Shown here in pieces: positions 6,065 to 62,921 of a DNA stretch of 64,000 nucleotides. Each line of letters opens with the position of its first letter. Positions within the stretch are counted from its first letter, which is position 1. A model generated the notes under the pieces. That model was not told the DNA's origin, made no database searches, and saw only the letters and a list, made by a program, of their open reading frames with translations. This stretch comes from an uncultured Candidatus Saccharibacteria bacterium. GTDB lineage: Bacteria > Patescibacteriota > Minisyncoccia > Phycocordibacterales > Zambryskibacteraceae. The position numbers and the translations under genes were made by a program. The stretch spans positions 92,614-156,613 of the forward strand of contig CAZUDK010000001.1 of the NCBI GenBank assembly GCA_964618905.1, written 5' to 3'.

Positions 6065-7165
6065 CTACATCATCTTCTCTAAAGTTCGCGGATTGGCTGA
6101 ATACAGCATGGCATTCTCTGCAGTAATTTCCCCTGAACGCACCAAATTCGCCAAGCATCTGTTTAAGTCTATCATGCCCAACTGAGAACTCGTCTCTATA
6201 ACAGAATCTATTTCCTGCGTGCGCCGATCTCTTATGAGGTTTGATATAGCACTGTTATTTATCAGAAGCTCATAAGCCGGTATCAGCCCTCCGGATATCC
6301 TTGGTACAAGCCTTTGCGAGAAAATTCCCAAAAGACTTGAAGAGAGCTGGAGCCGGATTTGGCTTTGCTGATCTGCCGGGAAAGAGTCAATAATGCGGTC
6401 CACTGTTTGGCCGGCAGTGTTGGTGTGAAGTGTAGAGAGGACGAGGTGTCCGGTTTCTGCAGCCGTAACGGAAGCTGATATTGTTTCAGGATCGCGCATC
6501 TCCCCTATCATCAAAACATCGGCATCCTGACGGAACATGCCTCTGAGAGCAGTGTGAAAATCCGGAGTATCAATCTTGACTTCTCTCTGATCGATAATGG
6601 ACTTCTTAGGTTCGAATATATATTCAATCGGATCTTCGATAGTGATGATATGCTCAAGTCTTTCAGTATTAATACTCTCAACCAAAGATGCCAAAGTGGT
6701 AGACTTACCGTGGCCGGCTGGCCCAACCACCAAGAAAAATCCTTGCTGCCGCTTGGCAAAAGTTTCAAGAATCGGAGGCAAGTTAAGCTCTTCGAATGTC
6801 TTTATGCGAGAAGGTACAAGCCTCAGAGCGATATTCATTTTACCGATGGCAAGATAGGCATTGCCGCGGAAGCGGCCCCCGCCCGACCGGACGGTCGTTC
6901 GGGCGGATTTATCCAAATGGCTGTAAGCAAAGTTGACTTCTTTTTCTCCGGCTAGCTCAGCTTTTTTCTCCGGTGTAAGAAAGATTGCCAAGAGAGTATC
7001 CATATCCTGCTTGGTCAGGGCAGGCATTTTTATAATAGGCACTAAAAATCCCGATACTCTTATAACCGGAGGCTTGCCTTCAGAAAGATGGAGATCTGAA
7101 GCACTCTCTTTTATAACTATATCGACGAGCTGGTCTAAAAGATCTGACTTAGGTACTTGTTCCAT
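6065..7165 (-). CDS. pilT: twitching-motility/retraction ATPase PilT
   Basis: 366 aa; Walker A GPAGHGKSTT; Asp box; AISNLIRD PilT signature; no N-terminal GSPII_E_N domain. Confidence 0.85.
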   Translation of the reverse strand: MEQVPKSDLLDQLVDIVIKESASDLHLSEGKPPVIRVSGFLVPIIKMPALTKQDMDTLLAIFLTPEKKAELAGEKEVNFAYSHLDKSARTTVRSGGGRFRGNAYLAIGKMNIALRLVPSRIKTFEELNLPPILETFAKRQQGFFLVVGPAGHGKSTTLASLVESINTERLEHIITIEDPIEYIFEPKKSIIDQREVKIDTPDFHTALRGMFRQDADVLMIGEMRDPETISASVTAAETGHLVLSTLHTNTAGQTVDRIIDSFPADQQSQIRLQLSSSLLGIFSQRLVPRISGGLIPAYELLINNSAISNLIRDRRTQEIDSVIETSSQLGMIDLNRCLANLVRSGEITAENAMLYSANPRTLEKMM

Positions 7166-7172
7166 ATTTCTA

Positions 7173-8885
7173 TTATAAAGTATTTACATCTTCAAACGGA
7201 ATCATTTTGTTGAAAGCTTTTATCAAGGCATCCTCTTTCATAGTCAGCATGCCTTTAGAACGGGCAACTTTATAAAGTTCCTGGTCAGAAGAATTTTCAT
7301 TGAGAATAACTGATTCAATATCCTTATCCATAGGCAAAACTTCCATGACAGCCATTCGGCCTGAAAGTCCGTTCGGACAATCAGGTGTAGGAGATGGCTC
7401 GTACAATTCTTTGCCGATTTTTATCTTGCTTCTGTATTCCTCCGGCAAATCAGAGAATTCTTTGTCTATCATAGCTTTGATAGAACCTTCCACCGGAAAT
7501 GGCTTGCCGCCACCAGGGCAGAGAGTGCGTACCAAGCGTTGTGCTATGGCAAGCTGCAAAGTAGGCGCAATAAGATAAGGGTCCACACCCATGTCTATGA
7601 GTCTGGGGATCACACCTATGGCATTATTGGTGTGAATAGTCGAGAAAACCAAGTGACCAGTAAGAGAAGCTTGAATAGCCAGCTGGGCAGTTTCCTTGTC
7701 ACGAATCTCACCCACCATGATAACATCCGGGTCCTGGCGCAAAGTGGTACGAAGACCTGTAGCGAAAGTGTAATCTATCTCCGGTCTAACTTGGGACTGA
7801 GACACTCCGTCTAAGGTGTATTCAACAGGATCTTCAAGAGACAGAACGTTTCTGTGATCTCGATCCACTTCTCTAAGCATCGAATAAAGAGTAGTGGATT
7901 TTCCTGAACCGGTAGGACCGGAGATCAGGACCAAGCCGTAAGGTCTGCTCAAAGAACCTCTGATCAGTTTAAGATTTCTTTCTGAAAGACCCATCTCATC
8001 GAGCTTTTTAAGTCCCCTCTTCTGGTCAAGAAGTCTCATCACCACTTTCTCGCCGTAATATGTAGGGAATGTCGAAACACGGAAGTCTATCTTGTCGCCA
8101 TTGACTGTGGCAGAGAATCTTCCGTCTTGAGGTTTGCGCTTTTCATCAAGGCGCATGTTGGAGAGAATTTTTATTCTAGCCACAACAGCAGAATGAACCT
8201 TGCTTGGCAAAACCAAAGAAGTATTAAGGACGCCATCCACTCGAAAGCGTACTCTGATATTCTCTCTAGTCGGTTCGATGTGAATGTCTGAAGCATTTCC
8301 CTTGGAAGCATAGCTCAATATCGTAGCTACTATCTTGGTAACGGGCGCATCTTCCACTATCTCGGCTTCTTTTTTTGTTTGTTCTTCCTCTTGTTGATGC
8401 TGGGCAGCTTTTGCAGAAAGCTCAGTATCAAGTTCCGATAGAGCTTTATTGACCTTCCCGGAAAGACCTTTATATCTTTCAAGAGCTGCATTGAAATCGG
8501 TCTCGGTTATCAAGAACAGCTTGTAAGGCATGCCTATTTTGGAAGATATGAAGTTTAATGCGTCCCTCGCTTCTATATCATCAGGATCAACTATGCCGAC
8601 TTCAAGGACTCCATCCTTAACAGCAATAGGCATTATCTTATAGTGCATGGCAGACTCCTCAGGAACATAGTCGAGCACCTTTCCTGGAATTTCCACGTTC
8701 TGAAGACTCATTGTCGGAATATCGAGACCTTCACCTTTGCTCTTTAAAATCTCTTCCGGTGATATGCCTTTGGATATTAGTACTTGTTCTATAGAAAGAC
8801 CGCTGCTTTCGGCTTCAGCTTTAATTTTAGCAACATCATCTGGCTTGATGAGCTTTTTTTCTTGTAAAGTTTCCAGAATGCTCAT
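7173..8885 (-). CDS. pilB: type IV pilus assembly ATPase PilB (GspE family)
   Basis: 570 aa; N-terminal GSPII_E_N-like domain; Walker A GPTGSGKSTT; His box; Cys-containing C-terminal segment. Confidence 0.85.
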   Translation of the reverse strand: MSILETLQEKKLIKPDDVAKIKAEAESSGLSIEQVLISKGISPEEILKSKGEGLDIPTMSLQNVEIPGKVLDYVPEESAMHYKIMPIAVKDGVLEVGIVDPDDIEARDALNFISSKIGMPYKLFLITETDFNAALERYKGLSGKVNKALSELDTELSAKAAQHQQEEEQTKKEAEIVEDAPVTKIVATILSYASKGNASDIHIEPTRENIRVRFRVDGVLNTSLVLPSKVHSAVVARIKILSNMRLDEKRKPQDGRFSATVNGDKIDFRVSTFPTYYGEKVVMRLLDQKRGLKKLDEMGLSERNLKLIRGSLSRPYGLVLISGPTGSGKSTTLYSMLREVDRDHRNVLSLEDPVEYTLDGVSQSQVRPEIDYTFATGLRTTLRQDPDVIMVGEIRDKETAQLAIQASLTGHLVFSTIHTNNAIGVIPRLIDMGVDPYLIAPTLQLAIAQRLVRTLCPGGGKPFPVEGSIKAMIDKEFSDLPEEYRSKIKIGKELYEPSPTPDCPNGLSGRMAVMEVLPMDKDIESVILNENSSDQELYKVARSKGMLTMKEDALIKAFNKMIPFEDVNTL

Positions 8886-15952: not shown

Positions 15953-16026
15953 CCGCCCTTAGCTCAGTTGGTTAGAGCACAGAGCTTATATCTCTGCGGT
16001 CCTTGGTTCGAGTCCAAGAGGGCGGA
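15953..16026 (+). tRNA. tRNA-Ile with genomic anticodon UAU (reads AUA)
   Basis: 74-nt cloverleaf: acceptor CCGCCCT/AGGGCGG, D-arm GCTC-AGTTGGTTA-GAGC, anticodon stem CAGAG/CTCTG with loop CTTATAT (T at 34, A at 37), T-loop TTCGAGT. Confidence 0.7.
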
Positions 16027-16133
16027 CAAATTATCTGTGATGACAAGAATTGAATAAATGTGTATAACTTCCTACTTTAATACGGATGAGTTGGTAGAAT
16101 TATTTACAGTTAATTAATAGTTAATATTAGTTT

Positions 16134-17210: not shown

Positions 17211-19208
17211 TTACGCCTGATGCTCTATGTCTTTCTTCTTTTTGAGCGGTATGCTGTGCGCCACCAGTATGTCTTCGAACTCCTTCTGCTCTATAGTTTC
17301 CTTCTCAATAAGACGCACCGCTATTGCTTCTAACACTTTGTCGTGGCTTTTGATTATATCCTCCACTTTCTCCATGGCTTCGCTCATGATCTTTGATACC
17401 TCGGCATCTATTTCTGCACTGACTCTTTCCGAATATTCCTTGCTGCCGATTCCTGCTCCATAGAGTGGCTTGCCCTCAGGACCTTCGAGAGCCACCGGCC
17501 CCATCTTCTCGGACATGCCGTACTTGGTAACCATATTCCTGGCAAGAGCAGTGGAAACCTGCAAATCATTCGATGGGCCTGTTGTTAGGTCGTCGAACCT
17601 ATCTTTCTCAACCACATATCCGCCGAGAGCAACTGCAATATCATCTAAAAATTCTTTCTTTGACTGAAGCTTTTTGTCTTCCAAAGGAAGCTTGAGCACA
17701 TAGCCGGCAGCACGGCCACGTGAAATTATAGAAATTTTGTGCACTGGATCGGCATAAGGCAAGACACTGGCAACCAGAGCGTGACCAGCCTCATGATAGG
17801 CAGTAATCTCTTTCTCTTTCTTGGAAAGAATGTGGCTCCTGCGTTCCGGGCCGAGCATTACTTTTTCTATAGAGCGAATGAGGTCAAACTGAGCAACCTT
17901 GTTCCTGCCTTCTCTGGCGGCGAGAATTGCCGCCTCGTTCATAAGAGAATACAAATCTGCTCCGGAAAATCCCGGGGTGCGCTCTGCCACCAAGGCCAAG
18001 TTAACATCTTCGGCAAAAGGCTTCTTTCTGGCATGCAGGGTCAAGATCTCTTCCCTGTCTTTCCTGTCCGGCAGATCAAGAGTTACCCGCCTATCAAAGC
18101 GGCCCGGACGAAGGAGAGCAGGGTCAAGAACATCCGGCCTGTTGGTAGCTGCCATGACTATCACTTTTTCATTCGGCTCGAAGCCGTCCATCTCCACCAG
18201 AATTTGATTCAAGGTCTGCTCTCGCTCATCATTGCCTCCGCCGACGCCAGTTCCGCGCACTCGGCCGACTGCATCAATCTCGTCTACGAAAATAATTGCC
18301 GGAGCCATCTTCTTGGCCATGTCGAAGAGGTCTCTGACGCGGCTGGCCCCCACACCGACAAACATCTCCACGAACTCAGAACCGGAGATAGAAAAGAAGG
18401 CTACGCCGGCTTCGCCGGCGACGGCACGGGCAAGCAGAGTCTTGCCTGTGCCTGGAGCCCCCATCAGCAAAATACCTTTCGGAATCCTAGCTCCGATGTC
18501 TAAAAACTTCTTAGGATTTTTCAAAAAATCCACCACCTCCCTCAGCTCCTCCTTTGCTTCCTTGGCACCAGCCACATCTTTAAAAGTAATCTTCTGAGAT
18601 TTATCATCAGGAGATATCATCCGCGCCTTAGACTGTCCAAAAGAAAATGCTTGCATGCCAGCACCTTTAACCTGCCTCGATAGAAACCACAGGAAAAAGA
18701 CGATAAATATTATTGGCAAAAGAATAGGAGCAAGAGACGCAAACCAGAAGAAAAATCCTCGATTGCTTAGAACATCAATGGTTACATTTGAGAGTGCTTC
18801 AGGATTTATATCGTAGTTGGACAGAGTAGTTGTCAGGGCTGTGCCCTCTTCTTTTTTAGACAACTTCTTAGAACCATCTAAGTATGTTATTTCAAGGTCG
18901 TCTCCTTTGACAGCAATGCTCTCAACCTGTCCCGAAGAAATATCTCCTGCAAGTTCAGAAATGGCTATCTCCTCGCTCTTATCGACGTTGCTTGCAATAA
19001 AAGAATAAGAAGAGACGAGCAGCAGGAAAATTATTATAGCCAAAAGCCCCTGGCCCAAAGGATTTTGGCCGGAAGGTCCTCTGCCGCCTTTTTTCAAAAT
19101 TATTTTCTTTATGGGCTTTTTGATTTGGTTCTTTGAAGGAGTAGCTGGCTTGCGATTTCCTGGCATTTTGCTGGAGAGATAGAGGTTCATATACGGCGTA
19201 TTATACAA
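17211..19208 (-). CDS. ftsH: ATP-dependent zinc metalloprotease FtsH
   Basis: Two TM segments; AAA+ Walker [21 protein letters not shown]; SRH; HEAGHAL zinc motif. Confidence 0.95.
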
Positions 19209-19269: not shown

Positions 19270-19524
19270 ATGCAGTATGTATATGTATTGCAAAGCAAAG
19301 AGGATAATGATTTTTATATTGGCTGTACTAGAAACCTCAAGGATAGACTGAGGCTGCATAATGCAAAGAAAGTTGCTTCTACCAAAAAGCGAGTTCCGTT
19401 TGTGTTAATTTACTACGAAGCATATATTGATAGTAAAGATGCATACCAGCGAGAGATGTTTTTAAAAACTGGCTGGGGTAGAAATCATCTTCGCAAAACA
19501 TTAAGCAACTTTCTTAATAGGTAA
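19270..19524 (+). CDS. GIY-YIG nuclease-domain small protein (paralog 1)
   Basis: YVYVLQS...DFYIGCTRNLKDRLRLHN GIY-YIG core motif; 84 aa. Confidence 0.7.
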   Translation: MQYVYVLQSKEDNDFYIGCTRNLKDRLRLHNAKKVASTKKRVPFVLIYYEAYIDSKDAYQREMFLKTGWGRNHLRKTLSNFLNR

Positions 19525-19993: not shown

Positions 19994-20263
19994 ATGCCCT
20001 ACTTTGTTTATATCCTTATAAGCAAGAAGGACCACAAGCTTTACGTAGGATGCACACGAGACATTAAAAAACGTCTTGAGCGTCATAATAATGGAGCGGT
20101 AATTGCCACAAAGCACCGCCGACCATTAGAACTTCTGCATATAGAAAAATTCGATAAGAAATCTGATGCTTTTAATCGAGAAAGATTTCTCAAAAGCTTG
20201 TGGGGTTCTAGATTCAAGAAAAAATTAATTTCTGAATATAAACAAAGTAGGGCAAATCAATAA
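19994..20263 (+). CDS. GIY-YIG nuclease-domain small protein (paralog 2)
   Basis: YFVYILISKKDHKLYVGCTRDIKKRLERHN; paralogous to 19270..19524. Confidence 0.7.
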   Translation: MPYFVYILISKKDHKLYVGCTRDIKKRLERHNNGAVIATKHRRPLELLHIEKFDKKSDAFNRERFLKSLWGSRFKKKLISEYKQSRANQ

Positions 20264-20332: not shown

Positions 20333-20732
20333 GGGGATGCTCGGCCTAGACAAGAAGAGAAGGCAGGTTGATGCGCAAGAGAGCTCGGGTGACTCTTAAA
20401 TCCGCTCGAAATCTTAAATGCAAAATCAACTTTTGCTTCAGTTGTTTCTCCGTACTTTACGGCAAACGACTTCCAGTTCGCTTACGCTAGAGCTTAACGC
20501 TCGCTAGGCCTTCTGGCGCGGTTCCGCAAGATGCTTTGAGTAGCGGACTCCGTGTTATTACACAAAGCTCTGGATGCTAGTTCCTCACTAGTATCCGAAA
20601 CTTAGAGGATAGAGGCTTGAGGGCTTTCGTTTGCTTTATACCTCACACCTCGAACTTCAATGAAGCACACTACCTTGCGTAGACTTCATCCTGTCCCCTT
20701 CTTGCACGGCGGTTCGACTCCGCCCATCTCCA
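20333..20732 (+). ncRNA. ssrA: tmRNA (ssrA)
   Basis: 5' GGGGAUG pairs (one G-U) with 3' CAUCUCC-A; tRNA-like T-arm GGCGGTTCGACTCCGCC; internal reading frame GCA AAC GAC ... TAA (ANDFQFAYARA*) at 20462..20497; directly downstream of smpB. Confidence 0.75.
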
Positions 20733-20746
20733 CTAGCAAAAACATT

Positions 20747-20770
20747 AGCTCCGAAAGGAGCTTTTTGTTT
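20747..20770 (+). terminator. intrinsic terminator after ssrA
   Basis: AGCTCC-GAAA-GGAGCT hairpin followed by TTTTTGTTT. Confidence 0.7.
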
Positions 20771-20896
20771 ATAAAACCTTTATTCCTTTTCTAAAATATG
20801 TTCTGAAAGGTAATCCACAACTCTTGCCAGTGGATAAAATTATAAGATGTATGAAGAAGTGCAGTGTAATTCTTCCCAGGCAGAAAGGAGCTGAAG

Positions 20897-21097
20897 ATGA
20901 ATGCCAAAGGACCGCTGCAAACTTGCCTGTTCCAGGATGCGTGCGGGAAATGCCCGCTCACTGGGACTGCTAAGTGCCCTGCAGGCACAAGCATGACAGC
21001 GCAAGGTGACACTTGTCATCAGTGTGGAGCGGATTCGCCGCCTTCTTCTTCGGACAAGATCATGGAAGAGTACGGGCAGGTCTGTATCTCGTTCTGA
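20897..21097 (+). CDS. small Cys-rich protein (7 Cys in 66 aa), unknown function
   Basis: Good RBS AAAGGAG 7 nt upstream of the ATG; followed by intrinsic terminator 21109..21146; lies in the GC-richer islet. Confidence 0.45.
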   Translation: MNAKGPLQTCLFQDACGKCPLTGTAKCPAGTSMTAQGDTCHQCGADSPPSSSDKIMEEYGQVCISF

Positions 21098-21201
21098 ACT
21101 CTTCGCCAGAGGGATTCCAGCATGCTGGGGTCCCTCTTCTTTTTATTTACAAAAAGAGTAAGGTGTAGGCAGAACTTTGAACTCGAGCCAGAGAGGAAGC
21201 G

Positions 21202-21381
21202 ATGGGAGAAAAGACTAAGAAGCAGATAGCAGAAGTGTCTCATGCGGACTTTGAGAAGATGATCAGCTAGGAAACGGAAGAACTCAAGGCAAAAGATCCA
21301 AATGGATTCTTGCCGAGCGAATACCTAAAATGATACGATCCTGAAGAGATCGACTACGACATATGCCATGTATGGCGCTGA
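21202..21381 (+). pseudogene. small ORF interrupted by in-frame TAG (21268) and TGA (21331): likely decayed gene
   Basis: RBS GAGAGGAAG then ATG; the three in-frame segments MGEKTKKQIAEVSHADFEKMIS*ETEELKAKDPNGFLPSEYLK*YDPEEIDYDICHVWR* read as one continuous protein-like sequence; strong terminator 21395..21430 follows. Confidence 0.4.
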
Positions 21382-21491
21382 AACACTGGAGTCACCCCAT
21401 GTGTATATGCACATGGGGCTTTTGTTTTTTAAATATAGATGAAGTAACCTGTATATAGAGGATTCAAAAAACCTGAACCAAGGAGTGAATA

Positions 21492-21701
21492 ATGGAAATC
21501 CATTATATTAAGGATCTCGATAAGATTTCGATCGAGATTTATCCCTCCAGGGACTACTTAGATACAAGGGAGGTAACGGAAGATGTTACGGTTGATTTCG
21601 ATAAGCATTATACGCCTTTGCGAATTGAAATCAAAAATGCAAGCAAATACTATCCACGTCAGTTTATCAACCAGATAAAAGTGTGGAAACCAAGAACCTG
21701 A
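21492..21701 (+). CDS. DUF2283 family protein
   Basis: MEIHYIKDLDKISIEIYPS...VDFDKHYTPLRIEI matches the DUF2283 pattern; RBS AAGGAG; followed by a perfect 12-bp hairpin at 21712..21739. Confidence 0.65.
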   Translation: MEIHYIKDLDKISIEIYPSRDYLDTREVTEDVTVDFDKHYTPLRIEIKNASKYYPRQFINQIKVWKPRT

Positions 21702-21748
21702 GTACCGATTACCCCCGCACCACGTAAGTGGTGCGGGGGTATAAAAAT

Positions 21749-22519
21749 TCATGCGGCCGCGGTCAGACGAGACTGATTTTTCAGGTCTTTGGCCGAAATG
21801 GCTTCCGAGCCGCCTATGCAGAGAGGGCACTCGTCCGGAACCCACTTGGGTATCAGCCGGCGAACGAGAGAGAGTATCTCCTTACCTCTCGAAACCACCA
21901 GGTTCGATCGGTTAACGATAGAGCAGACGCATGGCAAAACGCTCGCCCCCTTCTCCCTTACAGCTTGAGCAGCAAGCTCCACGCTTCCGCAGGTCGTGAT
22001 GACATCATCACATAGAAGCACTCTGTCTGCGGAAGTGAGTGCGCACGACTCATCGAAGATAAAGTGCCGACTGGCACCTTCTCCTCGCTTCGACGGAGAA
22101 GCCCAAGCGCAAGGCGCGTGACGCCGGCGCCCTATCTCGGCTGCAAGAGCTTCTGAAAGTTTTGTTGCACCGGTCTGCGGACCCACTACGCACGTGACCG
22201 AAATCATGATACTCCTACCCTTGTCACCCTCTGCTTCGATCAAGTCACACAAGTCCGAAGCAGCCTGGTGTATGAGAAGGTTATCAGAAATGATCTTCTC
22301 ACTGCAGAAGAGCTCGCTTGAGTGAAGTCCTCCGGAGAGCTGGACGTGAGGATTGAGAGGGTTCTTGTCGTCGTGAGTCCAAAGCGCGTTGAGGTCGCGA
22401 TAAACGCCCATCCAGCCCTTCTGATCTTTGTACATACTGCATCTCCTTTGAAGTTGAAGGTTCTTATTCGCTAATGCGAAGCCTAAGAAAAGATTATATA
22501 AGAATGGGTGTAAACTCAA
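21749..22519 (-). CDS. type I phosphoribosyltransferase (orotate-PRTase-like) protein
   Basis: PRPP-binding loop RVLLCDDVITTCGS. Likely true start is ATG at 22435 (MYKDQKG...) with AAAGGAG RBS, rather than the TTG at 22519. Gene GC is markedly above its surroundings. Confidence 0.65.
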   Translation of the reverse strand: MSLHPFLYNLFLGFALANKNLQLQRRCSMYKDQKGWMGVYRDLNALWTHDDKNPLNPHVQLSGGLHSSELFCSEKIISDNLLIHQAASDLCDLIEAEGDKGRSIMISVTCVVGPQTGATKLSEALAAEIGRRRHAPCAWASPSKRGEGASRHFIFDESCALTSADRVLLCDDVITTCGSVELAAQAVREKGASVLPCVCSIVNRSNLVVSRGKEILSLVRRLIPKWVPDECPLCIGGSEAISAKDLKNQSRLTAAA

Positions 22520-22750
22520 GGGTTAATTTAAAAAACTGACCATATATTTTCTCGCTTGGCCCAAATGCGCGATCCCGATCCTCGCCGGCGGTCACCACAG
22601 GTGAACCCCGTTCGTCTCGGCGACCGCCTACGCTAAGCGCTATGCAGGCGCCCCATCTCCAGCATGGAGGAGAGATGACCTTCGACAGAGCTCCCCCGAG
22701 CTAGTAGAACAAGCCCCTGGCACCAATGGTGTCGGGGGCTCTTTTATTTT
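22436..22750. promoter_or_regulatory. GC-rich structured non-coding region: 5' leader of the PRTase gene (minus) and/or small RNA with a plus-strand intrinsic terminator upstream of infC
   Basis: About 300 bp with no credible ORF, GC far above the genome background, multiple hairpins. Stem AGCCCCTGGCACCA...TGGTGTCGGGGGCT plus TCTTTTATTTT (22712..22760) on the plus strand; on the minus strand a T6 run lies ~100 nt before the PRTase start. Confidence 0.35.
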
Positions 22751-23028
22751 CTATCAATCTTCCTCACCAGCTCAAGCAAAAGTTCGTTTTGGTTTTCCAG
22801 GTGAGCCAGGATCATGTCGTGCTCATAACGGTTCAGCCGGGCTTCATCCAAATGATCCTCCTGCTCCATCTCATGCTTGTTTTTAGAGAAAAATCCTTTC
22901 TTGAGCAAAGAAGATTGCCTGCGTTCGTCTATATCTTTGCGAAGCCTTCTGAGCTCTGGCAAAGAAGGCGGGTTATGTCTATACTCCATATCCCAAATAG
23001 TGTATAATACATCCCAATAAAGATACAC
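22744..23028 (-). CDS. hypothetical charged/coiled-coil protein (doubtful)
   Basis: 94 aa ORF with a possible GGAG RBS; overlaps the plus-strand terminator and abuts the infC start, so it may be spurious. Confidence 0.25.
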   Translation of the reverse strand: MYLYWDVLYTIWDMEYRHNPPSLPELRRLRKDIDERRQSSLLKKGFFSKNKHEMEQEDHLDEARLNRYEHDMILAHLENQNELLLELVRKIDRK

Positions 23029-23033
23029 CCGAT

Positions 23034-23537
23034 TTGCAACAACTCCGTATTAATCAACATATAAAAGCTAAAGAACTCAGGGTTATAGGTCCTCAAGGAG
23101 AAAACTTTGGAGTACTCTCACTGAAAGAGGCCTTAGTTAAAGCTGACGAACTCAAGCTTGATCTTATAGAAATATCCCCTACCGCCAAACCTCCGGTGGC
23201 TAAGATTGCTGACTATGGCAAATATCAGTACGAAGAAAAGAAAAAGAGCAAGCAGGGCAAAAAATCCCATTCCACAGAAGTCAAGAACATTCAGGTCAAG
23301 CTCGGTACTGGTGATCACGACCTTTCCTTAAAAGCCAAAAAAACATCAGAATGGCTCTCTGAAGGTCACAGAGTAAGGGTAGACTTGTTCCTTCCAGGTA
23401 GAGCCAAATACTTGGATCAAAACTTCCTTAAAGAACGCATCGAAAGAATGCTCAAACTGGTTTCAGTCGATTACAAGATAGCCGAGGCTCCTAAAAAAAG
23501 CCCAAAGGGCATGACCGCTATCATTGAGAAGGCTTAA
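23034..23537 (+). CDS. infC: translation initiation factor IF-3
   Basis: RINQHIKAKELRVIGPQGENFGVLSLKEAL... and the C-terminal domain match IF-3; TTG start (non-ATG start is classical for infC). Confidence 0.9.
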   Translation: MQQLRINQHIKAKELRVIGPQGENFGVLSLKEALVKADELKLDLIEISPTAKPPVAKIADYGKYQYEEKKKSKQGKKSHSTEVKNIQVKLGTGDHDLSLKAKKTSEWLSEGHRVRVDLFLPGRAKYLDQNFLKERIERMLKLVSVDYKIAEAPKKSPKGMTAIIEKA

Positions 23538-41746: not shown

Positions 41747-42502
41747 CTATTTAGTTTTCTTGGACTTAGCTGTCTTAGCCTTTGCTTTTGCCTTCACTGT
41801 CTTCTTCTCCTTAGGTTCAGACTTATCAGCCTTTTTGCCTCGAAGCTTGTTGCCAGGCAGAGAATCAAGAGCCTCCTTAGGATTCTCGATAACCAAGTAC
41901 TTGTGTTCAAGAAGAACCAGAGGGTGAAGATTCCTAGCCTCAATGACCTCCATGTTGCCAAGATTTGCAAAAGACCTTTCTGCTTCCTTATTCTTGCCTG
42001 AGAGGGCTATAGTAGCAGAATTTTTCTTTTTTGAAAGAAGACCTTCAAACCCCTTTATCGAAGAGAGATTGTTTAGAGTCTCTACAGCTTCGCGAGTCTT
42101 TGGCTGCGATAGATCGAAAGAATCAACGAGAAGAATCTCACCGTCCTTGAGCTTGCGGGAAAGAATAGTATAAAGAGCCTTGGCTTTCATCTTTCTTGAA
42201 ACAGTGCGCTCGTAGTTCTTGTCATTGCGAGGGCCATGCGCTACACCGCCGCCTACCCAGATAGGTGATCTATTAGAACCGTGTCTTGCCCGGCCAGTTC
42301 CCTTCTGTCTCCATGGCTTTTTACCTCCTCCGCTTACCTCTCCGCGAGTTTTTGCATGAGCGACAGGCTTTCGCTTGGAAGACTGAAGCGAATTAGCAAC
42401 TTGATATACCAAATCGGCATTCCAAGGCAGACCGAAAACAGATTCCGGAAGAGCAATCTTTTCTACTTCTTTTCCTTCTTTGTTGTAAATAGATGTATCC
42501 AT
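41747..42502 (-). CDS. rplD: 50S ribosomal protein L4 (with Lys-rich C-terminal tail)
   Basis: Sequence and position. Confidence 0.9.
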   Translation of the reverse strand: MDTSIYNKEGKEVEKIALPESVFGLPWNADLVYQVANSLQSSKRKPVAHAKTRGEVSGGGKKPWRQKGTGRARHGSNRSPIWVGGGVAHGPRNDKNYERTVSRKMKAKALYTILSRKLKDGEILLVDSFDLSQPKTREAVETLNNLSSIKGFEGLLSKKKNSATIALSGKNKEAERSFANLGNMEVIEARNLHPLVLLEHKYLVIENPKEALDSLPGNKLRGKKADKSEPKEKKTVKAKAKAKTAKSKKTK

Positions 42503-42507
42503 GTCTG

Positions 42508-43128
42508 TTATCTAGCGGCTTTAATCTCTACCAGTGTTCCTCTTCTTCCTGGGATAGCGCCTTTTACCATTAGTTCTTCGGATTCTGGCAAAATCTTAAT
42601 GATCTTGAGATTTTTTACCGTTACTCTTTCACCTCCCATTCTTCCGGCCATTCTCATACCTTTAACCACACGTCCTCCGGCCCTACCGCCTCCGCCGATT
42701 GAACCCGGCTCGCGTTCAGAATGCTTCTGACCATGAGAGCGGCGGCCTCCTTTGAATCCATGTCTTTTGACTACACCCTGAAAGCCCTTGCCTTTCGACA
42801 CTGCTGACACAGTTACTGTGTCTCCTTCGGCAAATGAATCAAGTCCGATCTTGTCTCCAAGATTCGGAAGATCTTCACCTTCCTTAGCTCTGTACTCCTT
42901 CAAGACAGACGCATTGATGCCTTTCAAGTGACCGCGGAGAGACTTGGAAATATTCTTCTCTTTCCTCTCTCCGAAGGCTACCTGCACAGCTTTGTAACCA
43001 TCACGAGCCATATCCTTGACCTGAGTCACGGTCAAAGGCCCTGCGGATAGTACAGTTACAGGATGAGCAACGCCATTCTCATCGAAGACTTGCGTCATAT
43101 TTACTTTTTTTGCCAGAAGGAATTTCAT
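42508..43128 (-). CDS. rplC: 50S ribosomal protein L3
   Basis: Sequence and position. Confidence 0.9.
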   Translation of the reverse strand: MKFLLAKKVNMTQVFDENGVAHPVTVLSAGPLTVTQVKDMARDGYKAVQVAFGERKEKNISKSLRGHLKGINASVLKEYRAKEGEDLPNLGDKIGLDSFAEGDTVTVSAVSKGKGFQGVVKRHGFKGGRRSHGQKHSEREPGSIGGGGRAGGRVVKGMRMAGRMGGERVTVKNLKIIKILPESEELMVKGAIPGRRGTLVEIKAAR

Positions 43129-43149
43129 TGGATTTAATCAGTAGCCGAA

Positions 43150-43506
43150 TTACATCATCTTAACGTCAATGCTCACGCCGGAAGGCAGAGACAGATTCGT
43201 TAGAGACTCAATGATCTTTGGAGTCGGATTTATGATGTCTATCAGTCTCTTGTGCACCCTCATCTCAAATTGTTCTCGCGCATTCTTGTAGACGAAGGAA
43301 GAGCGGTTGACTGTGTATTTCTTTATCTCAGTCGGTAAAGGAATCGGACCTTGAACTTCCGCATCATAACGAAGTGCAGTGTCGATTATCTGCTTTACTG
43401 AGAGATCAAGAATTTTGGATTCATAAGCTCGAACCCTGATGCGAAGCTTGGAAGCTTCGCCTTCTTTGTTATTGCTCTTTTTTGTTGCTTTAGGTTTTGT
43501 AGCCAT
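43150..43506 (-). CDS. rpsJ: 30S ribosomal protein S10 (N-terminal basic extension)
   Basis: LRIRVRAYESKILD...PLPTEIKKYTVNRS. Confidence 0.9.
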   Translation of the reverse strand: MATKPKATKKSNNKEGEASKLRIRVRAYESKILDLSVKQIIDTALRYDAEVQGPIPLPTEIKKYTVNRSSFVYKNAREQFEMRVHKRLIDIINPTPKIIESLTNLSLPSGVSIDVKMM

Positions 43507-43590
43507 TGTCGCTAGGTTCTAGGTGCTGGGTTCTAGGTGCTAGCTTTTGAATTCAAGCTAGAAGCAAGTCCCTAGCAGCTAGCAGCTGCC

Positions 43591-44787
43591 TTACTTAATG
43601 ATCTTGGTTACCACACCGGCACCCACAGTTTTACCTCCTTCTCGGATAGCGAAGCGGCGCTGCTCTTCAAGAGCTACTGGAGCCACCAGCTTAACTGTGA
43701 AGGTAACTGTGTCACCCGGCATAACCATCTCTACACCCTCAGGTAGAGTTACGTCTCCTGTAACATCGGTAGTACCGATGTAGAACTGAGGCTTGTAGCC
43801 AGTGAAGAATGGAGTGTGTCGGCCTCCTTCATCCTTCTTCAGGATGTAGACTTCAGCTGTGAATTCAGTGTGAGGAGTAATAGATCCCGGCTTAGCGAGA
43901 ACCTGACCTCTGTGAAGGTCTTCTTTCTTTACACCTCGCAGCAGGATACCTGCATTGTCTCCGGCCTGTCCCTCCTGAAGAGACTTGTTGAACATTTCAA
44001 TACCGGTAACAACTGTCTTTGTCGTATCTTTGATTCCTACAATTTCAACTTCATCACCAACCTTGATGATACCTCTCTCAATACGTCCTGTAACCACTGT
44101 TCCGCGGCCTTCAATCGAGAAGATGTCCTCGATAGGCATAAGGAATGGCTTGTCAGTATCACGTTGTGGAAGCGGAATGTAAGTATCAAGAGCATTTACA
44201 AGGTCAAGAATCTTCTGAGACCATTCGTCATCAATGCCTGTAGCCTCAAGAGCCTTGAGAGCAGAACCTCTGATAACAGGAGCATTTGCTCCGTCATACT
44301 CGTACTTAGTCAGAAGATCACGAACTTCTTCTTCAACAAGGTCAATAAGTTCCTTGTCTGCAACCATGTCGCACTTGTTGATGAATACTATGATCTTAGG
44401 AACACCCACCTGCTTAGCAAGAAGGATATGTTCACGAGTCTGAGGCATCACACCATCAGTAGCTGCTACCACCAAGATAGCGCCGTCCATCTGGGCTGCG
44501 CCCGTAATCATGTTCTTGATGTAGTCTGCGTGACCAGGGGCATCTATGTGAGCATAGTGCCTTGTATCTGTCTCGTATTCTGAGTGGGAAAGGGCGATGG
44601 TTATACCTCGTGCCTTTTCCTCAGGAGCACTGTCAATTGCGTTGACGTCCTTGACTGTAGCCTTCTTTCCGGCTCGGTTGAGCACGCTCAAGATAGCTGC
44701 GGTCAATGTAGTTTTACCGTGGTCAACGTGTCCGATAGTACCTACGTTGACATGCGACTTAGACCTATCAAATTCTGCTGCTGCCAT
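43591..44787 (-). CDS. tuf: elongation factor Tu
   Basis: [25 protein letters not shown]. Confidence 0.98.
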
Positions 44788-44959
44788 AATAATTAATTCT
44801 TAAATTTAAGTTTTGTAATTTCCCGAAGCAAAGTAAGTGCGCGAGAACTGCTACTTACTTTGATTTAGGATTAAGCGCAGTATAGCAGCTTAGTTTTCCT
44901 TTATTGAGAAAGACTCAAAGATCATACCTAAGCCGTATAAGACGCTGGGGCTATCTTAC

Positions 44960-44991
44960 AGAAAAAGCCCCAGGAGCGCAAGCTCCTGGGG
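44960..44991 (-). terminator. intrinsic terminator after the cold-shock gene
   Basis: GCCCCAGGAGC-GCAA-GCTCCTGGGGT followed by a U-run on the minus strand. Confidence 0.8.
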
Positions 44992-45015
44992 TAATTGCTG
45001 CACAGCGGCCTAGTC

Positions 45016-45543
45016 CTAGGCGACCCCCCGAATGTTCTCCGGGACAATCATCTGGACATTCTCCGCTCGCATACCTCGCGGGGTCTTCTTAACATCGAAG
45101 GAGACCCTTTGACCCTTCTCGAGCTCCTCGATGTAATCAGGAAGAGCTGTCTGGTGCACGAACACGTCGGTGAGCTTCGGATCATCCCGCTTAATGAAGC
45201 CGAATCCCCGCCCGTTGCTGAACCATGCCACCGTTCCGAAGACTCCGATCTCGATGATCTCGGCCTTCGGATAAGGCGTTTCACCAGCAGACTCTGCGGC
45301 AGCCGGTGGAAATGAGGCAGCTGCGCGTCTCCCGTGACGACCATGGCGAGCTTCCAATTCCCTGAGCTGTTCCACGTCACCCCTGTCGCGCCGCCTCGAT
45401 TTCTTTTTGCCCACAGTCCGAGCTCCTTGAAAGGGTTTAAGAAAACAGAACAAACTCCGGCCGATACCATAACACTCAGATGAGCTAAAATCAATGACCA
45501 ACGGGAAAACAGTTCGGATAGACAACACAGAAGCGCCCCGCAT
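45016..45543 (-). CDS. cold-shock-domain protein with Arg-rich N-terminal extension (GC-rich gene between fusA and tuf)
   Basis: C-terminal GTVAWFSNGRGFGFIKRDDPKLTDVFVHQTAL...GQRVSFDV is a CspA-type cold-shock domain. The N-terminal ~100 aa are Arg/Ala-rich and low-complexity; the start codon is uncertain. Confidence 0.6.
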   Translation of the reverse strand: MRGASVLSIRTVFPLVIDFSSSECYGIGRSLFCFLKPFQGARTVGKKKSRRRDRGDVEQLRELEARHGRHGRRAAASFPPAAAESAGETPYPKAEIIEIGVFGTVAWFSNGRGFGFIKRDDPKLTDVFVHQTALPDYIEELEKGQRVSFDVKKTPRGMRAENVQMIVPENIRGVA

Positions 45544-45586
45544 ATGCGGGGCGCTTTGGCGGTCATCCGTAGTGTCTACGGGTATT

Positions 45587-47749
45587 TTATTTCCCTCCCG
45601 TCCTTGCTTCTATGATTTCCTGCTCAACATTCTTAGGCACCACAGCATAGTGGTCGAATTCCATTGTTGCCGAACCTCGGCCTTCTGTCATCGAACGCAG
45701 GTTTGTTACATATCCGAACATTTCCGACAGCGGCACGAATGCCCTAACAACCTTAAGATCTCCTCTCTCTTCCATGGCCTCTATCTGACCTCTCTTACTG
45801 GACAAGTTGCCTGTTACATCACCCATGAACTTATCAGGGACAACTACTTCCACTTTCATAATAGGCTCGAGGAGCACAGGTTTTGCCTTCTTGGCTGCTT
45901 CTTGGAATGCCTGGCTGGCAGCTATCTTGTATGCAATCTCAGACGAGTCCACATCGTGATAAGAACCAAAGAGAAGTTCCGCAGAAATGCCTGTCATCTT
46001 GTATCCGGCAAGCACACCTCTATCCATAGCTTCTTTGATACCCTTTTCTACTGCAGGGATAAACTCCTGAGGAATAACACCTCCTTTGATCGAATCAATG
46101 AACTCGAAACCTTCTTCTCGATGCACGTTCTTCGGCACCTTTTCATCTGGATCATAGTCAGGAAGAGGTTTGATCTTGATCTTAACGTGTCCGTACTGAC
46201 CCTTACCTCCTGTCTGCTTAATGTATTTATTCTCGACTTCTGCTTCGCCTTGGATGGTTTCTTTATATGATACCTGAGGCTTGCCAACATTGGCTTCAAC
46301 AGCGAATTCTCGCTTGAGTCTGTCAACGATAATCTCCAAGTGGAGCTCACCCATACCCATAATGACAGTCTCTCCGGTCTCTGAATCTGTTTTGATCTTA
46401 AATGTTGGGTCTTCATCTGAAAGACGCTTGAGAGCCATACCCATTTTCTCTTGGTCAGCCTTGGTCTTAGGCTCAATACGAAGCGAGATAACCGGCTCAG
46501 GGAATGTGATTTGGTCAAGAATTATAGGATGATTCTCATCACAGAAAGTATGCGAGGTCTTAGCATCCTTGAGACCAACCGCAGCTGCAATCTCTCCGGC
46601 AAAAACCTTCTTAACTTCTTCTCTCTTATCTGCCTGCAGACGCACGATTCTTCCGAGACGCTCTTTCTCATCAAGAGTTGAGTTGTATATATAGGTACCG
46701 GACTCTACAGTACCGGAATAAACACGGAAGAAAGTGAGCTGACCGACAAACGGGTCAGACTGCAATTTAAATGCAAGAGCTGAGAAAGGTTCGCTGTCTG
46801 AAGCATGTCTTTCTATCTCCTCGCCTGTCCTTGGGTCGATGCCTTTTACAGGAGGCACATCAAGAGGACTCGGCAAAAAGTCCACCACCGCGTCGAGAAC
46901 CAGCTGCACGCCCTTGTTCTTGAGGGCGGAACCGGCAAACACGGGGAAAACATTATTAGCTATAACCGCCTTTCTGAGCGTTGCTTTAAGGTCTTCATAG
47001 CCTATTTCCTTGCCGTCGAGGTACTGATTCATCAGAGCTTCATCGTTTTCAACGATCTTTTCCACCAATTCAGCGCGATATTTTTCAACATCCGCCTTCA
47101 TGTTCTCCGGAATCTCCTTTTCCACTATCTTGTCGCCCATAGGGCCTTCAAAGTAGTAAGCCTTCATGCGCAAAAGATGCACCAAACCTTCATGCTTGTC
47201 TTCTTCGCCGATTGGCAAGGTCATTCTGACTGCATTCTTGGACAGTCGGTTTAAAATGCTCTGGAAAGAGCGCTCAAAAGATGCTCCGGTCCTGTCTATC
47301 TTGTTTATGAAGCAGATTCTTGGAACATGAGCTTCTTCAGCATATCTCCAGTTGGTTTCCGACTGAGGCTCCACTCCGGCAACTCCGTCAAAGACCACCA
47401 TGGCGCCGTCGAGCACCCTAAGAGAGCGCTTAACCTCAACTGTAAAGTCTATGTGACCTGGAGTGTCGATAATATTGAAACGATATTTATTCTCTTTCTT
47501 CAGCCTCTCGCCTTCTGGAATGTTTGTGGGTCCCCAAAAACATGTTACAGCAGCGGCTGTGATAGTAATGCCGCGCTCTTTCTCCTGCTCCATCCAGTCG
47601 GTGGTAGCTTCACCTTCATGCACCTCACCGATCTTGTGCTGAGAACCGGTATAGTAAAGCACGCGTTCAGACGTGGTGGTTTTACCCGCATCCACGTGGG
47701 CGACAATTCCAAAGTTTCTAATTCTTTCTAACGGATAGTCTCTCTCCAT
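45587..47749 (-). CDS. fusA: elongation factor G
   Basis: AHVDAGKTTTSERVLYYTG...; 720 aa. Confidence 0.98.
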   Translation of the reverse strand: MERDYPLERIRNFGIVAHVDAGKTTTSERVLYYTGSQHKIGEVHEGEATTDWMEQEKERGITITAAAVTCFWGPTNIPEGERLKKENKYRFNIIDTPGHIDFTVEVKRSLRVLDGAMVVFDGVAGVEPQSETNWRYAEEAHVPRICFINKIDRTGASFERSFQSILNRLSKNAVRMTLPIGEEDKHEGLVHLLRMKAYYFEGPMGDKIVEKEIPENMKADVEKYRAELVEKIVENDEALMNQYLDGKEIGYEDLKATLRKAVIANNVFPVFAGSALKNKGVQLVLDAVVDFLPSPLDVPPVKGIDPRTGEEIERHASDSEPFSALAFKLQSDPFVGQLTFFRVYSGTVESGTYIYNSTLDEKERLGRIVRLQADKREEVKKVFAGEIAAAVGLKDAKTSHTFCDENHPIILDQITFPEPVISLRIEPKTKADQEKMGMALKRLSDEDPTFKIKTDSETGETVIMGMGELHLEIIVDRLKREFAVEANVGKPQVSYKETIQGEAEVENKYIKQTGGKGQYGHVKIKIKPLPDYDPDEKVPKNVHREEGFEFIDSIKGGVIPQEFIPAVEKGIKEAMDRGVLAGYKMTGISAELLFGSYHDVDSSEIAYKIAASQAFQEAAKKAKPVLLEPIMKVEVVVPDKFMGDVTGNLSSKRGQIEAMEERGDLKVVRAFVPLSEMFGYVTNLRSMTEGRGSATMEFDHYAVVPKNVEQEIIEARTGGK

Positions 47750-61419: not shown

Positions 61420-62178
61420 TTATGATAACAGTGCTTGGGCTATATCCAAGAATTGTTTGTAGTTGAGAGAAGCTCTGCCCACCAGAAATCCATCTATAGC
61501 AGTTACTTCTGAGAGCTCTTCGGCGTTAGCAGGTTCCACAGATCCTCCGTAAAGAATCGGAATTTTTTCCGCACTATCCCTGCCATACATGTCGGAAAGG
61601 AGTCTTCGTATATATAAAGCAGTTTGAGTAAGATCCCTGGGAGAGATGGCGCTCTTGGCCTTACTGCCTATGGCCCAGATAGGTTCGTAGGCAACCATGA
61701 TCTTATTTGCATCTGGCCGCTTAACTCCTTCAAGAGATGCTTTAAGCTGATGCCTCAGAAAATCCAAATATTCCCCTTCACTGTCATGTTCGCTCTCGCC
61801 TATGCAAAGAAGTGGGCTTATGCCGCTCTTTATGGCAGTCTTAACTTTTTCTGAAACTATTTTGTCCGTTTCGCCAAGTGCCCGTCTTTCGCTATGTCCG
61901 ACTATTGCTACCCTGACACCAAAACTCTTTAGTATTTCCGGTGTAATGCTTCCTGTGAGAGTGCCATTTTCTTCAAGAGGCATATCTTGAGACGCTAAAG
62001 CAGAAAATTTTCTGCCTTTCTCAGAAACAACAGAAAGGTATGGCAGAGGCGGCGCGATATATGTAGAAAGTTTTTTGTATTTAAGATGCGCACGAGCCAT
62101 ACCGCGCAAGAGGGCCAGAGCTTCCGCCACTGAACCGGGATAGTTCTTCCAATTCGCTACCAAAATTTTCTTTGCCAT
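61420..62178 (-). CDS. tpiA: triosephosphate isomerase
   Basis: VANWKNY, AYEPIWAIGS, YGGSV. Confidence 0.9.
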   Translation of the reverse strand: MAKKILVANWKNYPGSVAEALALLRGMARAHLKYKKLSTYIAPPLPYLSVVSEKGRKFSALASQDMPLEENGTLTGSITPEILKSFGVRVAIVGHSERRALGETDKIVSEKVKTAIKSGISPLLCIGESEHDSEGEYLDFLRHQLKASLEGVKRPDANKIMVAYEPIWAIGSKAKSAISPRDLTQTALYIRRLLSDMYGRDSAEKIPILYGGSVEPANAEELSEVTAIDGFLVGRASLNYKQFLDIAQALLS

Positions 62179-62184
62179 TCAGAA

Positions 62185-62892
62185 TTACTGCGTAAACACT
62201 TTCTTCATCAAATAAGAGATTTGAATCAGAGTTCCTTCCTCTTGAGTACTTACAGTCACAGAGAGGTTTGCATTCTCTTTCTTGCCAGTTATAGATCTGA
62301 CAGCAGAGGATGGATCTCCTTCGGATACCTCATATCCGTTTTCGGAGACATATTTCTTGTATTCATCATAAACTTCAGCCTCAGTTTTGGCGCTGATGTA
62401 AGAAACGTTTATCTGCCTAGCATTATGCTCAATATATTCAGTGCTTACGCTTTCAACTATGTTCCCCTCTTCTATAGGAAGACCTTCTGGCAGGCCTACC
62501 GGAACAGTAAGAACACCATTCACTGTAGGTGTGCCTTCTACTATTGCATCAGAAGCACGTCCGTTAATGCCACTAGTGTTCATGTCTACGGCCGAAGAAG
62601 AGCTGAAATATCTGAATGCAAAGTATCCTGCAATAAGCACAACCACTACAGCCAAAGCTCCAAGAACTATCTTTACATTCATATTTCCAGAGTCTTTCAT
62701 GTCCCCTGGTATTTGCCCTACAGGAGCTTGGACAGGAACTTGAGTTGGTGCAGATGTAGGTATTGAAGATACTGGCGCTGCAGTTGCTGCTGCAGGTGTT
62801 GGAATTGGAGTTGGTTCAGGCGCAGGAGTCGGTGCCGGTGTTGGTGCTGAATTTGGCATCGAATTTGCCATTGGATTTTGTGTTTGTTCCAT
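62185..62892 (-). CDS. hypothetical membrane protein with Pro/Thr/Ala-rich N-terminus
   Basis: PTPAPTPAPEP repeats, single TM, ~140-aa extracytoplasmic domain. Confidence 0.45.
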   Translation of the reverse strand: MEQTQNPMANSMPNSAPTPAPTPAPEPTPIPTPAAATAAPVSSIPTSAPTQVPVQAPVGQIPGDMKDSGNMNVKIVLGALAVVVVLIAGYFAFRYFSSSSAVDMNTSGINGRASDAIVEGTPTVNGVLTVPVGLPEGLPIEEGNIVESVSTEYIEHNARQINVSYISAKTEAEVYDEYKKYVSENGYEVSEGDPSSAVRSITGKKENANLSVTVSTQEEGTLIQISYLMKKVFTQ

Positions 62893-62921
62893 AGTTTTAG
62901 TTCCGTTTAGTGCGTTAGCTT

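Follow-up and report, generated by a model that had tools for sequence, protein, structure and literature searches.

What occupies the gap between the transfer-messenger RNA (tmRNA) gene ssrA and infC in a Patescibacteria genome, and how did it come to lie there? We addressed this question in a window of 64,000 nucleotides from an uncultured Candidatus Saccharibacteria bacterium (contig CAZUDK010000001.1, positions 92,614 to 156,613 of the forward strand), in which position 1 is the first letter. A sequence-only reading of this window had suggested that foreign DNA forms an islet directly downstream of ssrA, at an integration site linked to the tmRNA gene. The interval of about 20763-22744 is a genome-specific islet, which lies between the terminator of ssrA on its left and a terminator and a DUF1003 gene remnant on its right. 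All genes of the islet are orphan or strongly divergent, and its surroundings consist of core genes. We describe the islet as genome-specific DNA, either acquired or orphan. Concerning its origin, we lean slightly toward the interpretation that it is the eroded remnant of an integrative element at an ssrA hot spot.

The main result comes from the same interval in relatives. We fetched 65 infC loci from species-representative genomes, all belonging to Patescibacteria (Parcubacteria/Paceibacterota), the best of which reached 71% identity in infC. At least 14 relatives (15 with L075) carry tRNA-Ile(TAT)...smpB-ssrA upstream of infC and on the same strand. The sequence-only reading had raised the question whether ssrA is directly followed by infC elsewhere, and indeed this is the case in L064, where only 74 bp separate the two genes. 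In the 13 others the gap measures 0.9-7.5 kb and is filled with unrelated contents (about 0.9 kb in L035 and L041, 7538 bp in L016), compared to 2.3 kb in the window. Each genome has a different content in this interval, including GrpB, LexA, a PLD-like enzyme, a glycosyl hydrolase, a beta-lactamase-like protein, membrane proteins and many orphans. The islet genes were absent between ssrA and infC in all 14 relatives, as well as anywhere in the 65 infC-centred loci. The sole item that relatives share with the window interval is the infC-adjacent DUF1003 gene, found in L011, L014, L024 and L030. Thus, the interval between smpB-ssrA and (DUF1003-)infC-rpmI-rplT is a hypervariable hot spot. Since the gap varies in length as well as in content, an insertion-prone hypervariable site between conserved anchors is favored.

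The lineage carries elements that target ssrA, and recombinase-bearing elements sit at the same junction as the islet. Scanning metagenomes for a tmRNA pattern specific to the clade recovered three contigs from one sample, L077, L078 and L080. Their tmRNA 3' halves are identical and the sequences diverge directly after ...CTCCACT. Large serine recombinases of 518 amino acids with Resolvase, Recombinase and Zn_ribbon_recom domains are encoded on L077 (161-1717, minus strand) and on L080 (4209-5765, plus strand). Both genes extend 48 nt into the tmRNA 3' end, with their last 16 codons (…LVEMGGIEPP…) lying antisense to it. The two recombinases are 79% identical and each heads a different island. 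A SocA/Panacea protein is among the cargo of one island, and the other includes a reverse transcriptase together with a helix-turn-helix (HTH) protein. No relatives of the L077 recombinase were found in viral contigs. A recombinase remnant comprising residues 311-514 only also abuts ssrA in L016 (2430-3041, minus strand).

Displaced tmRNA ends were likewise detected in relatives. In L078, direct repeats of 15 nt of the tmRNA end (TCCGCCCATCTCCAC) lie at 194-208 and 642-656, the distal one with an encoded CCA at its end. Between these repeats, a cassette of about 448 bp has been inserted at the tmRNA 3' end, its only features being a terminator and a small GIY-YIG gene. L022 contains CATCTCCACCA and a terminator at 6804-6850, on the distal border of the variable segment, and L014 contains a tmRNA-end copy of 34 columns with 26 matches at 7821-7853, the best match in that locus. 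The repeats of L022, L014 and L078 were found by targeted searches only; simple local alignment revealed no tmRNA-end repeats in the gaps of the 14 relatives. Two further observations were made in these loci. In L054, the tmRNA 3' end recurs in inverted orientation (CATCTCCACCA) at 6439-6449 on the minus strand, 57 nt downstream of ssrA. Furthermore, the cargo of L080 includes, at 1660-2885 on the plus strand, an HTH_3 protein followed by an RVT_1 reverse transcriptase of 305 amino acids, a pair that may constitute a defence module of the retron or Abi type within this Patescibacteria element.

How does the ssrA end look in the window itself? The gene (20333-20735, plus strand, with 20733 as an alternative end; placed by both ARAGORN and Rfam) matched RF00023 with 86.8 bits and is complete, covering model positions 1-374. 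Its intrinsic terminator (20747-20762, plus strand) forms the left edge, and the islet starts past this terminator, immediately 3' of the intact gene. A lone single nucleotide polymorphism relative to the Logan contig L001 falls at position 20759 inside the terminator. The 3' end of ssrA reads ...CCGCCCATCTCCAC followed by TAG, and comparison of 3' flanks shows that CCA is not encoded. Among 24 tmRNA genes this CTCCAC/TAG junction occurs only in the window, L016, L077 and L080, and in five other genes CCA is encoded at that position.

At the other side of the islet, the sequence-only reading had noted a match of 10/12 to the tmRNA end near 22650. The match exists (CCCATCTCCA at 22652-22661), but by itself is only marginally above chance. 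It forms part of a candidate displaced tmRNA fragment, a putative attachment-site scar (attR), CCCATCTCCAgCA at 22652-22664, on the plus strand in ssrA orientation. This fragment agrees in 12/13 positions with a CCA-encoding tmRNA 3' end and lies 48 nt ahead of a positionally conserved terminator at 22712-22740. Matches of the 12/13 type occur three times in the window, compared to 0.05 expected: in ssrA itself, in ftsH and at 22652-22664. When the tmRNA end was aligned with gaps, in three segments, to the surrounding GC-rich block, the score exceeded those of all shuffles; similar top scores were obtained in other loci, and we count this alignment as weak support for a tmRNA-end copy. Taken together, the traces of integration in the window, namely the TAG junction and the 12/13 tmRNA-end copy, are circumstantial and weak. 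The match in ftsH (17211-19208, minus strand) served as a calibration against false calls of attachment (att) sites: at 18174-18199 on the plus strand, the antisense of an LVEMDGFEP motif matches the T-arm and acceptor end of the tmRNA in 20/24 bases, which is a coding coincidence.

We infer from the junction and from the elements in relatives that the islet arrived via ssrA-targeted integration. According to this scenario, one or more integrative elements, of the kind that is intact in close relatives, would have inserted at the extreme 3' end of ssrA. The element would have supplied a replacement 3' end and terminator, and the native end would have been displaced downstream. Later deletion of the recombinase and most of the cargo would have produced a mosaic composed of an orphan Cys-rich open reading frame (ORF), a dead spacer, a DUF2283 gene, an intact but divergent PyrE-like gene and a GC-rich non-coding relic, the latter holding a decayed copy of the tmRNA end. 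Such integration would imply an empty site of the structure ...CCCATCTCCACCA, about 48 nt, the 22712-22740 terminator and DUF1003.

The base composition of the islet was also analyzed. Between 20790 and 22750 the GC content is 49.1%, compared to a window average of 44.2%, and only 1.1% of 2-kb windows are as GC-rich. The proposed GC-richer 2 kb after ssrA is thus real, though the excess is patchy: the Cys-rich ORF and the phosphoribosyltransferase (PRTase) gene have 55% and the non-coding block 63%, while the DUF2283 gene has 38% and the stretch formerly read as a broken gene 44%. In raw tetranucleotide distance the islet deviates mildly (z 2.0, top 4.4%). Tetranucleotide usage in the window is most deviant elsewhere, at 42000-45800 and 62000-64000 (z up to 4.1), far above the islet. 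At 45016-45543 on the minus strand, a gene with 55% GC encodes a cold-shock-domain protein that has an N-terminal extension of about 100 amino acids. A phage or plasmid origin of the 2.3 kb was considered and dropped, since blastn in distant mode returned no match.

The largest gene of the islet encodes a PyrE-like type I phosphoribosyltransferase of 228 amino acids (21749-22435, minus strand). It starts with an ATG at 22435 (MYKDQ...), preceded by AGGAG 7 nt upstream. A PRTase-like gene on the opposite strand had been predicted, and this was confirmed by a PF00156 match of 28.2 bits (cut-off 26.3). The loop binding phosphoribosyl pyrophosphate, VLLCDDVITTCGS, aligns to the PRTase family, with Gly changed to Cys at one nearly invariant position. 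Like PyrE, the protein has the type I fold signature and this loop, and both its best family and its only PDB match are orotate phosphoribosyltransferases (NCBIfam TIGR01367 pyrE_Therm, E 7.7e-15; PDB 4paw, E 6.5e-6). The protein does not reach the equivalog level, where the scores stay far under the cut-offs (55 bits vs 150.25 for TIGR01367; 29.4 vs 106.8 for TIGR00336). The enzyme is predicted to act on orotate.

About 15 homologues of this PRTase were found, with identities of 42-48%. Those with a named source come from Patescibacteria or from Joint Genome Institute (JGI) metagenomes, and in contrast to PyrE the family is specific to Patescibacteria. In L003-L005 the homologues lie between a dihydroorotate-dehydrogenase-like (DHO_dh) gene and an OMPdecase gene, in other words next to pyrD-like and pyrF genes. 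This pyr linkage is absent in L006-L010 and in the window, where the gene has no pyr neighbors. The neighbors of the homologues differ from genome to genome, and none of the homologues adjoins a tRNA or tmRNA gene. The window protein is intact, yet it is the most divergent member and departs from the family at 27/102 highly conserved columns; this divergence could reflect a simple outgroup position. GC at third codon positions (GC3) is 59%, about 3 standard deviations above the window genes (0.424, standard deviation 0.058). In all four other loci examined, however, the homologues are also 6-13 GC points above their host. Upstream of the gene lies an AT-rich spacer of 120 nt (22436-22555, 34% GC), the presumed promoter region; no promoter passed a consensus scan.

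The remaining genes of the islet are small. A plus-strand ORF of 66 amino acids (20897-21097) carries seven Cys residues in a CxxC...C...CxxC arrangement, and the strong ribosome-binding site ascribed to it is present as a Shine-Dalgarno sequence, AAGGAG, 6 nt upstream of the ATG. An intrinsic terminator (21108-21137, plus strand) follows 10 nt past its stop codon. The ORF is not called as a gene in public assemblies. The family and homologue search suggested for it came back without a result: it matched no protein family, and an exhaustive HMMER search of 1.84 billion representatives gave no credible homologue, the single match being a repetitive protein of 892 amino acids (E 3.8e-4). A single-sequence AlphaFold2 model was uninformative (pLDDT 40). 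Small orphan ORFs, two of them Cys-rich, were also seen in the interval of L014, the closest syntenic relative, at 6547-6729, 7511-7744 and 7834-8097 on the plus strand.

Downstream of the Cys-rich ORF, the sequence-only reading had described a small gene broken by an in-frame TAG and TGA (21203-21382, plus strand). We did not retain this gene. The frame contains two stops in 59 codons, and about three are expected at random for its base composition; a homologue search was empty. Since the stop count is close to the chance expectation, the frame is not counted as a gene and is indistinguishable from non-coding sequence. It is followed by another intrinsic terminator on the plus strand (21395-21418). 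The DUF2283 gene, in contrast, was recognized correctly (21492-21701, plus strand). Its AT-rich sequence encodes 69 amino acids that match PF10049 (E 6.7e-6) with 26.6 bits, above the gathering cut-off of 23, over model positions 2-49 of 49. The protein resembles other small DUF2283 proteins in its whole-domain match, whereas the gene has no recognizable partner, the upstream frame being no detectable gene. Among 5.8 billion proteins it had no close relative and matched only itself. A perfect 14-bp hairpin (21710-21741) separates the convergent DUF2283 and PRTase genes.

The right part of the islet is a GC-rich non-coding block specific to this genome (22556-22711, plus strand; 22556-22745 with its terminator). 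The sequence-only reading had described it as a structured block of about 300 bp. Without an ORF and with 62.6% GC it is indeed GC-rich and non-coding, and its plus strand folds better than shuffled sequences (z -3.06, 0/200 shuffles as good; minus strand z -1.49), but its length is only 190 nt. A hairpin just before infC had been named as its end. The hairpin is a strong terminator with a 13-bp stem and a T-run on the plus strand (22712-22740); a DUF1003 remnant, however, lies between it and infC. Searches with the block against Rfam 15 gave no match at the gathering threshold, and only terminator-like noise at E <= 10. A covariance model run against 1.08 Mb of relatives matched only the block itself, and no blastn homologue was found in relatives. 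An identical islet is present in the Logan runs SRR11843827 and SRR11843829. Three copies of the block are known, in the window and in two Logan contigs, all of them identical.

Three possible relationships of the block were tried and rejected. It is not a leader or riboswitch of the PRTase gene, since nothing like it occurs in the upstream regions of five PRTase homologues. A homology to the GC-rich stretch that takes the corresponding position in L014 was not significant (z 1.9), and that stretch holds an ORF. Nor did we accept a homology to the sequence next to the displaced tmRNA end of L078 (score 23, p ~0.05). The L014 stretch has 56% GC, its ORF encodes 87 amino acids, and no sequence similarity to the block was detectable.

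The terminator at 22712-22740 marks the transition to the right flank. In L011 and L014 a terminator is kept at the same position beside the stop codon of DUF1003, with unrelated content upstream of it. The terminator of the window may represent the ancestral one of ssrA, or simply the convergent one of DUF1003. The DUF1003 remnant itself (22744-22989, minus strand) was identified by tblastn and by alignment to the orthologues of L011 and L014, on which the Pfam family DUF1003 (PF06210) was assigned; the window ORF has no Pfam match. Intact orthologues of about 150 amino acids exist in L011, L014, L024 and L030. The 81 amino acids of the remnant retain the N-terminal ~17 and the C-terminal ~26 residues of the 151-residue L011/L014 proteins. 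A membrane core of about 70 amino acids, covering both predicted membrane helices, was lost in frame. The conserved right anchor begins with infC (23034-23537, plus strand), the first gene of infC-rpmI-rplT.

On the left flank, a tRNA-Ile gene with the anticodon TAT (15953-16027) is kept upstream of ftsH-smpB-ssrA across the clade. Two small GIY-YIG genes (19270-19524 and 19994-20263) are located on either side of smpB. A GIY-YIG gene between smpB and ssrA occurs only in the window, L035 and L066 when the 14 syntenic relatives are compared. Because of this sporadic occurrence, we suggest that the smpB-adjacent GIY-YIG genes are mobile.

Several results weigh against an origin of the islet by integration at ssrA. 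No integrase, transposase, phage gene or remnant of one was found in the islet or in the 64-kb window. None of the islet ORFs has a recombinase domain, and tblastn of the L077 and L080 recombinases against the window gave as its sole match 15 amino acids that overlap the tmRNA itself. Convincing att direct repeats are missing from the window, and a repeat finder detected none at the boundaries. When an att repeat was sought by local alignment, an 80-nt tmRNA 3' query scored 10, compared to a mean of 10.1 in other 2.4-kb chunks, and this candidate was discarded. In a gapped tmRNA-end score the region came out on top of 2528 windows with 30.5, yet the margin over a tRNA at 29.8 is only 0.7. The agreement at the CTCCAC/TAG junction spans 3 nt only, and the tmRNA-end copy is short, with a similar 12/13 match arising in ftsH (18187-18199) by coding coincidence. 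A recombinase domain was found in 0 of 43 ORFs from the variable intervals of the 14 relatives, and hence most of the interval variability is not attributable to integration. Tetranucleotide usage, which had been suggested as a check, is ordinary after normalization for base composition (top 26%), so the islet does not deviate once GC is corrected. Since its family is GC-richer than every host, the GC content of the PRTase gene is no proof of a recent transfer and cannot date one. The foreign islet proposed from sequence alone is thus supported in part: the hot spot, the sporadic content and the recombinases at ssrA in relatives speak for it, and the absence of an integrase and of convincing att repeats from the window speaks against it. 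The islet might instead be a "junkyard" that arose by non-site-specific turnover between two essential transcription units, through illegitimate recombination, gain and loss of small genes and local deletions. Targeting of ssrA would then be uninvolved, and the 13-mer and the TAG junction would be coincidental. We consider this explanation possible, though clearly short of an even chance. The missing recombinases, the missing boundary repeats and the comparable chance match in ftsH all agree with it, the in-frame deletion in the adjoining DUF1003 gene shows ordinary local decay, and the compositional mosaic suggests several separate events. It does not account for the recombinase elements that occupy the exact junction in L077, L080 and L016, for the clear displaced tmRNA ends in L078 and L022, or for a CTCCAC/TAG junction common to the window and recombinase-bearing loci only.

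A history without any acquisition appears improbable to us. In that case the genes would be native and vertically inherited, and the local GC would reflect function, with a PRTase family that is GC-rich in general and a block that is a structured RNA. The GC excess of the PRTase homologues over their hosts in four other loci, the inconspicuous GC-normalized tetranucleotide usage and the core genes all around would be expected under this assumption. Vertical inheritance is difficult to reconcile, however, with the absence of the islet genes from ssrA-infC in 14 relatives and from the 65 infC loci, and with PRTase homologues that have different neighbors in every genome. The closest of these homologues is only 46% identical in 5.8 billion proteins, and the GC3 of 0.59 stands about 3 standard deviations over the window genes. 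A separate proposal, which fits either origin of the islet, concerns the block at about 22556-22745. Its plus strand could encode a functional small RNA or a cis-regulatory leader, transcribed away from the PRTase gene up to the terminator at 22712-22740. Its GC content stands out in a genome of 44%, the fold is strand-specific as described above, a canonical plus-strand terminator lies there with no plus-strand ORF upstream, and alternative pairings compete for the 3' arm of this terminator. Nevertheless, the block belongs to no Rfam family even at E <= 10, has no homologue in the 1.08 Mb of relatives by covariance model or blastn, and no promoter passed the scan. The three known copies are identical and hence offer no variation for covariation. 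Moreover, the terminator need not belong to the block, because it is kept in L011 and L014 beside unrelated upstream content. We therefore regard a functional RNA as quite unlikely, and treat the block as a relic of acquired DNA holding the candidate tmRNA-end scar. Integration at ssrA followed by erosion thus remains, by a small degree, our favored explanation for the islet as a whole.

Insertion of foreign DNA beside tmRNA genes is textbook biology; the islet is of a familiar kind and not surprising in itself. Its importance is local and lies in marking a hypervariable hot spot within a core region that is rigid elsewhere in this Patescibacteria genome (ftsH-smpB-ssrA ... infC-rpmI-rplT). 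The islet also shows a route by which a nucleotide-metabolism gene, here the PyrE-like PRTase, can reach an organism of reduced biosynthesis. The most interesting by-product are the large serine recombinases on the tmRNA 3' end in related Patescibacteria, outside the window. One may speculate that the clade hosts an undescribed family of ssrA-targeting elements, characterized by a serine recombinase whose C-terminus (…LVEMGGIEPP…) is antisense to the T-arm and acceptor end of the tmRNA. The window islet would then be a domesticated remnant through which a PyrE-like enzyme of nucleotide salvage, and perhaps a new small RNA in the form of the block, became fixed in a metabolically reduced genome. 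We hold this combined scenario to be rather doubtful.

Genomic islands and prophages in tRNA and tmRNA genes are known as Islander-type integrative genetic elements (PMC4383910, PMC7192596; Williams, 2003, "Traffic at the tmRNA gene," cited there). Their hallmark is a regenerated target together with a displaced fragment, which mark the two ends, and the usual catalysts at these targets are tyrosine integrases (PMC4383910). The window islet resembles such islands in its place directly 3' of an intact ssrA and in its sporadic occurrence, with one relative that has an empty-like site. The elements in relatives regenerate the tmRNA 3' end and leave a displaced fragment at the far end. In the window, an integrase is missing and the candidate fragment comprises only 13 nt with 12/13 matches. 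With 2 kb, the islet is also far below the typical island size. A further difference concerns the enzyme, which in the relatives is a large serine recombinase and not a tyrosine integrase.

Use of a serine-family recombinase at such a target may have a parallel. The phage phiRSM of Askora et al. 2011 (entry 22 among the references of PMC7192596) reportedly integrates at the 3' end of a tRNA gene by means of an enzyme of this family. The enzyme is said to be small and resolvase-like, and the phage filamentous. The proteins of L077 and L080 differ from it, as they comprise 518 amino acids with Recombinase and zinc-ribbon domains, target ssrA, and were seen without phage genes. By analogy with phiRSM, the arrangement in L077 and L080 would imply that the 3' end of a tRNA-like gene serves as attB for a serine recombinase.

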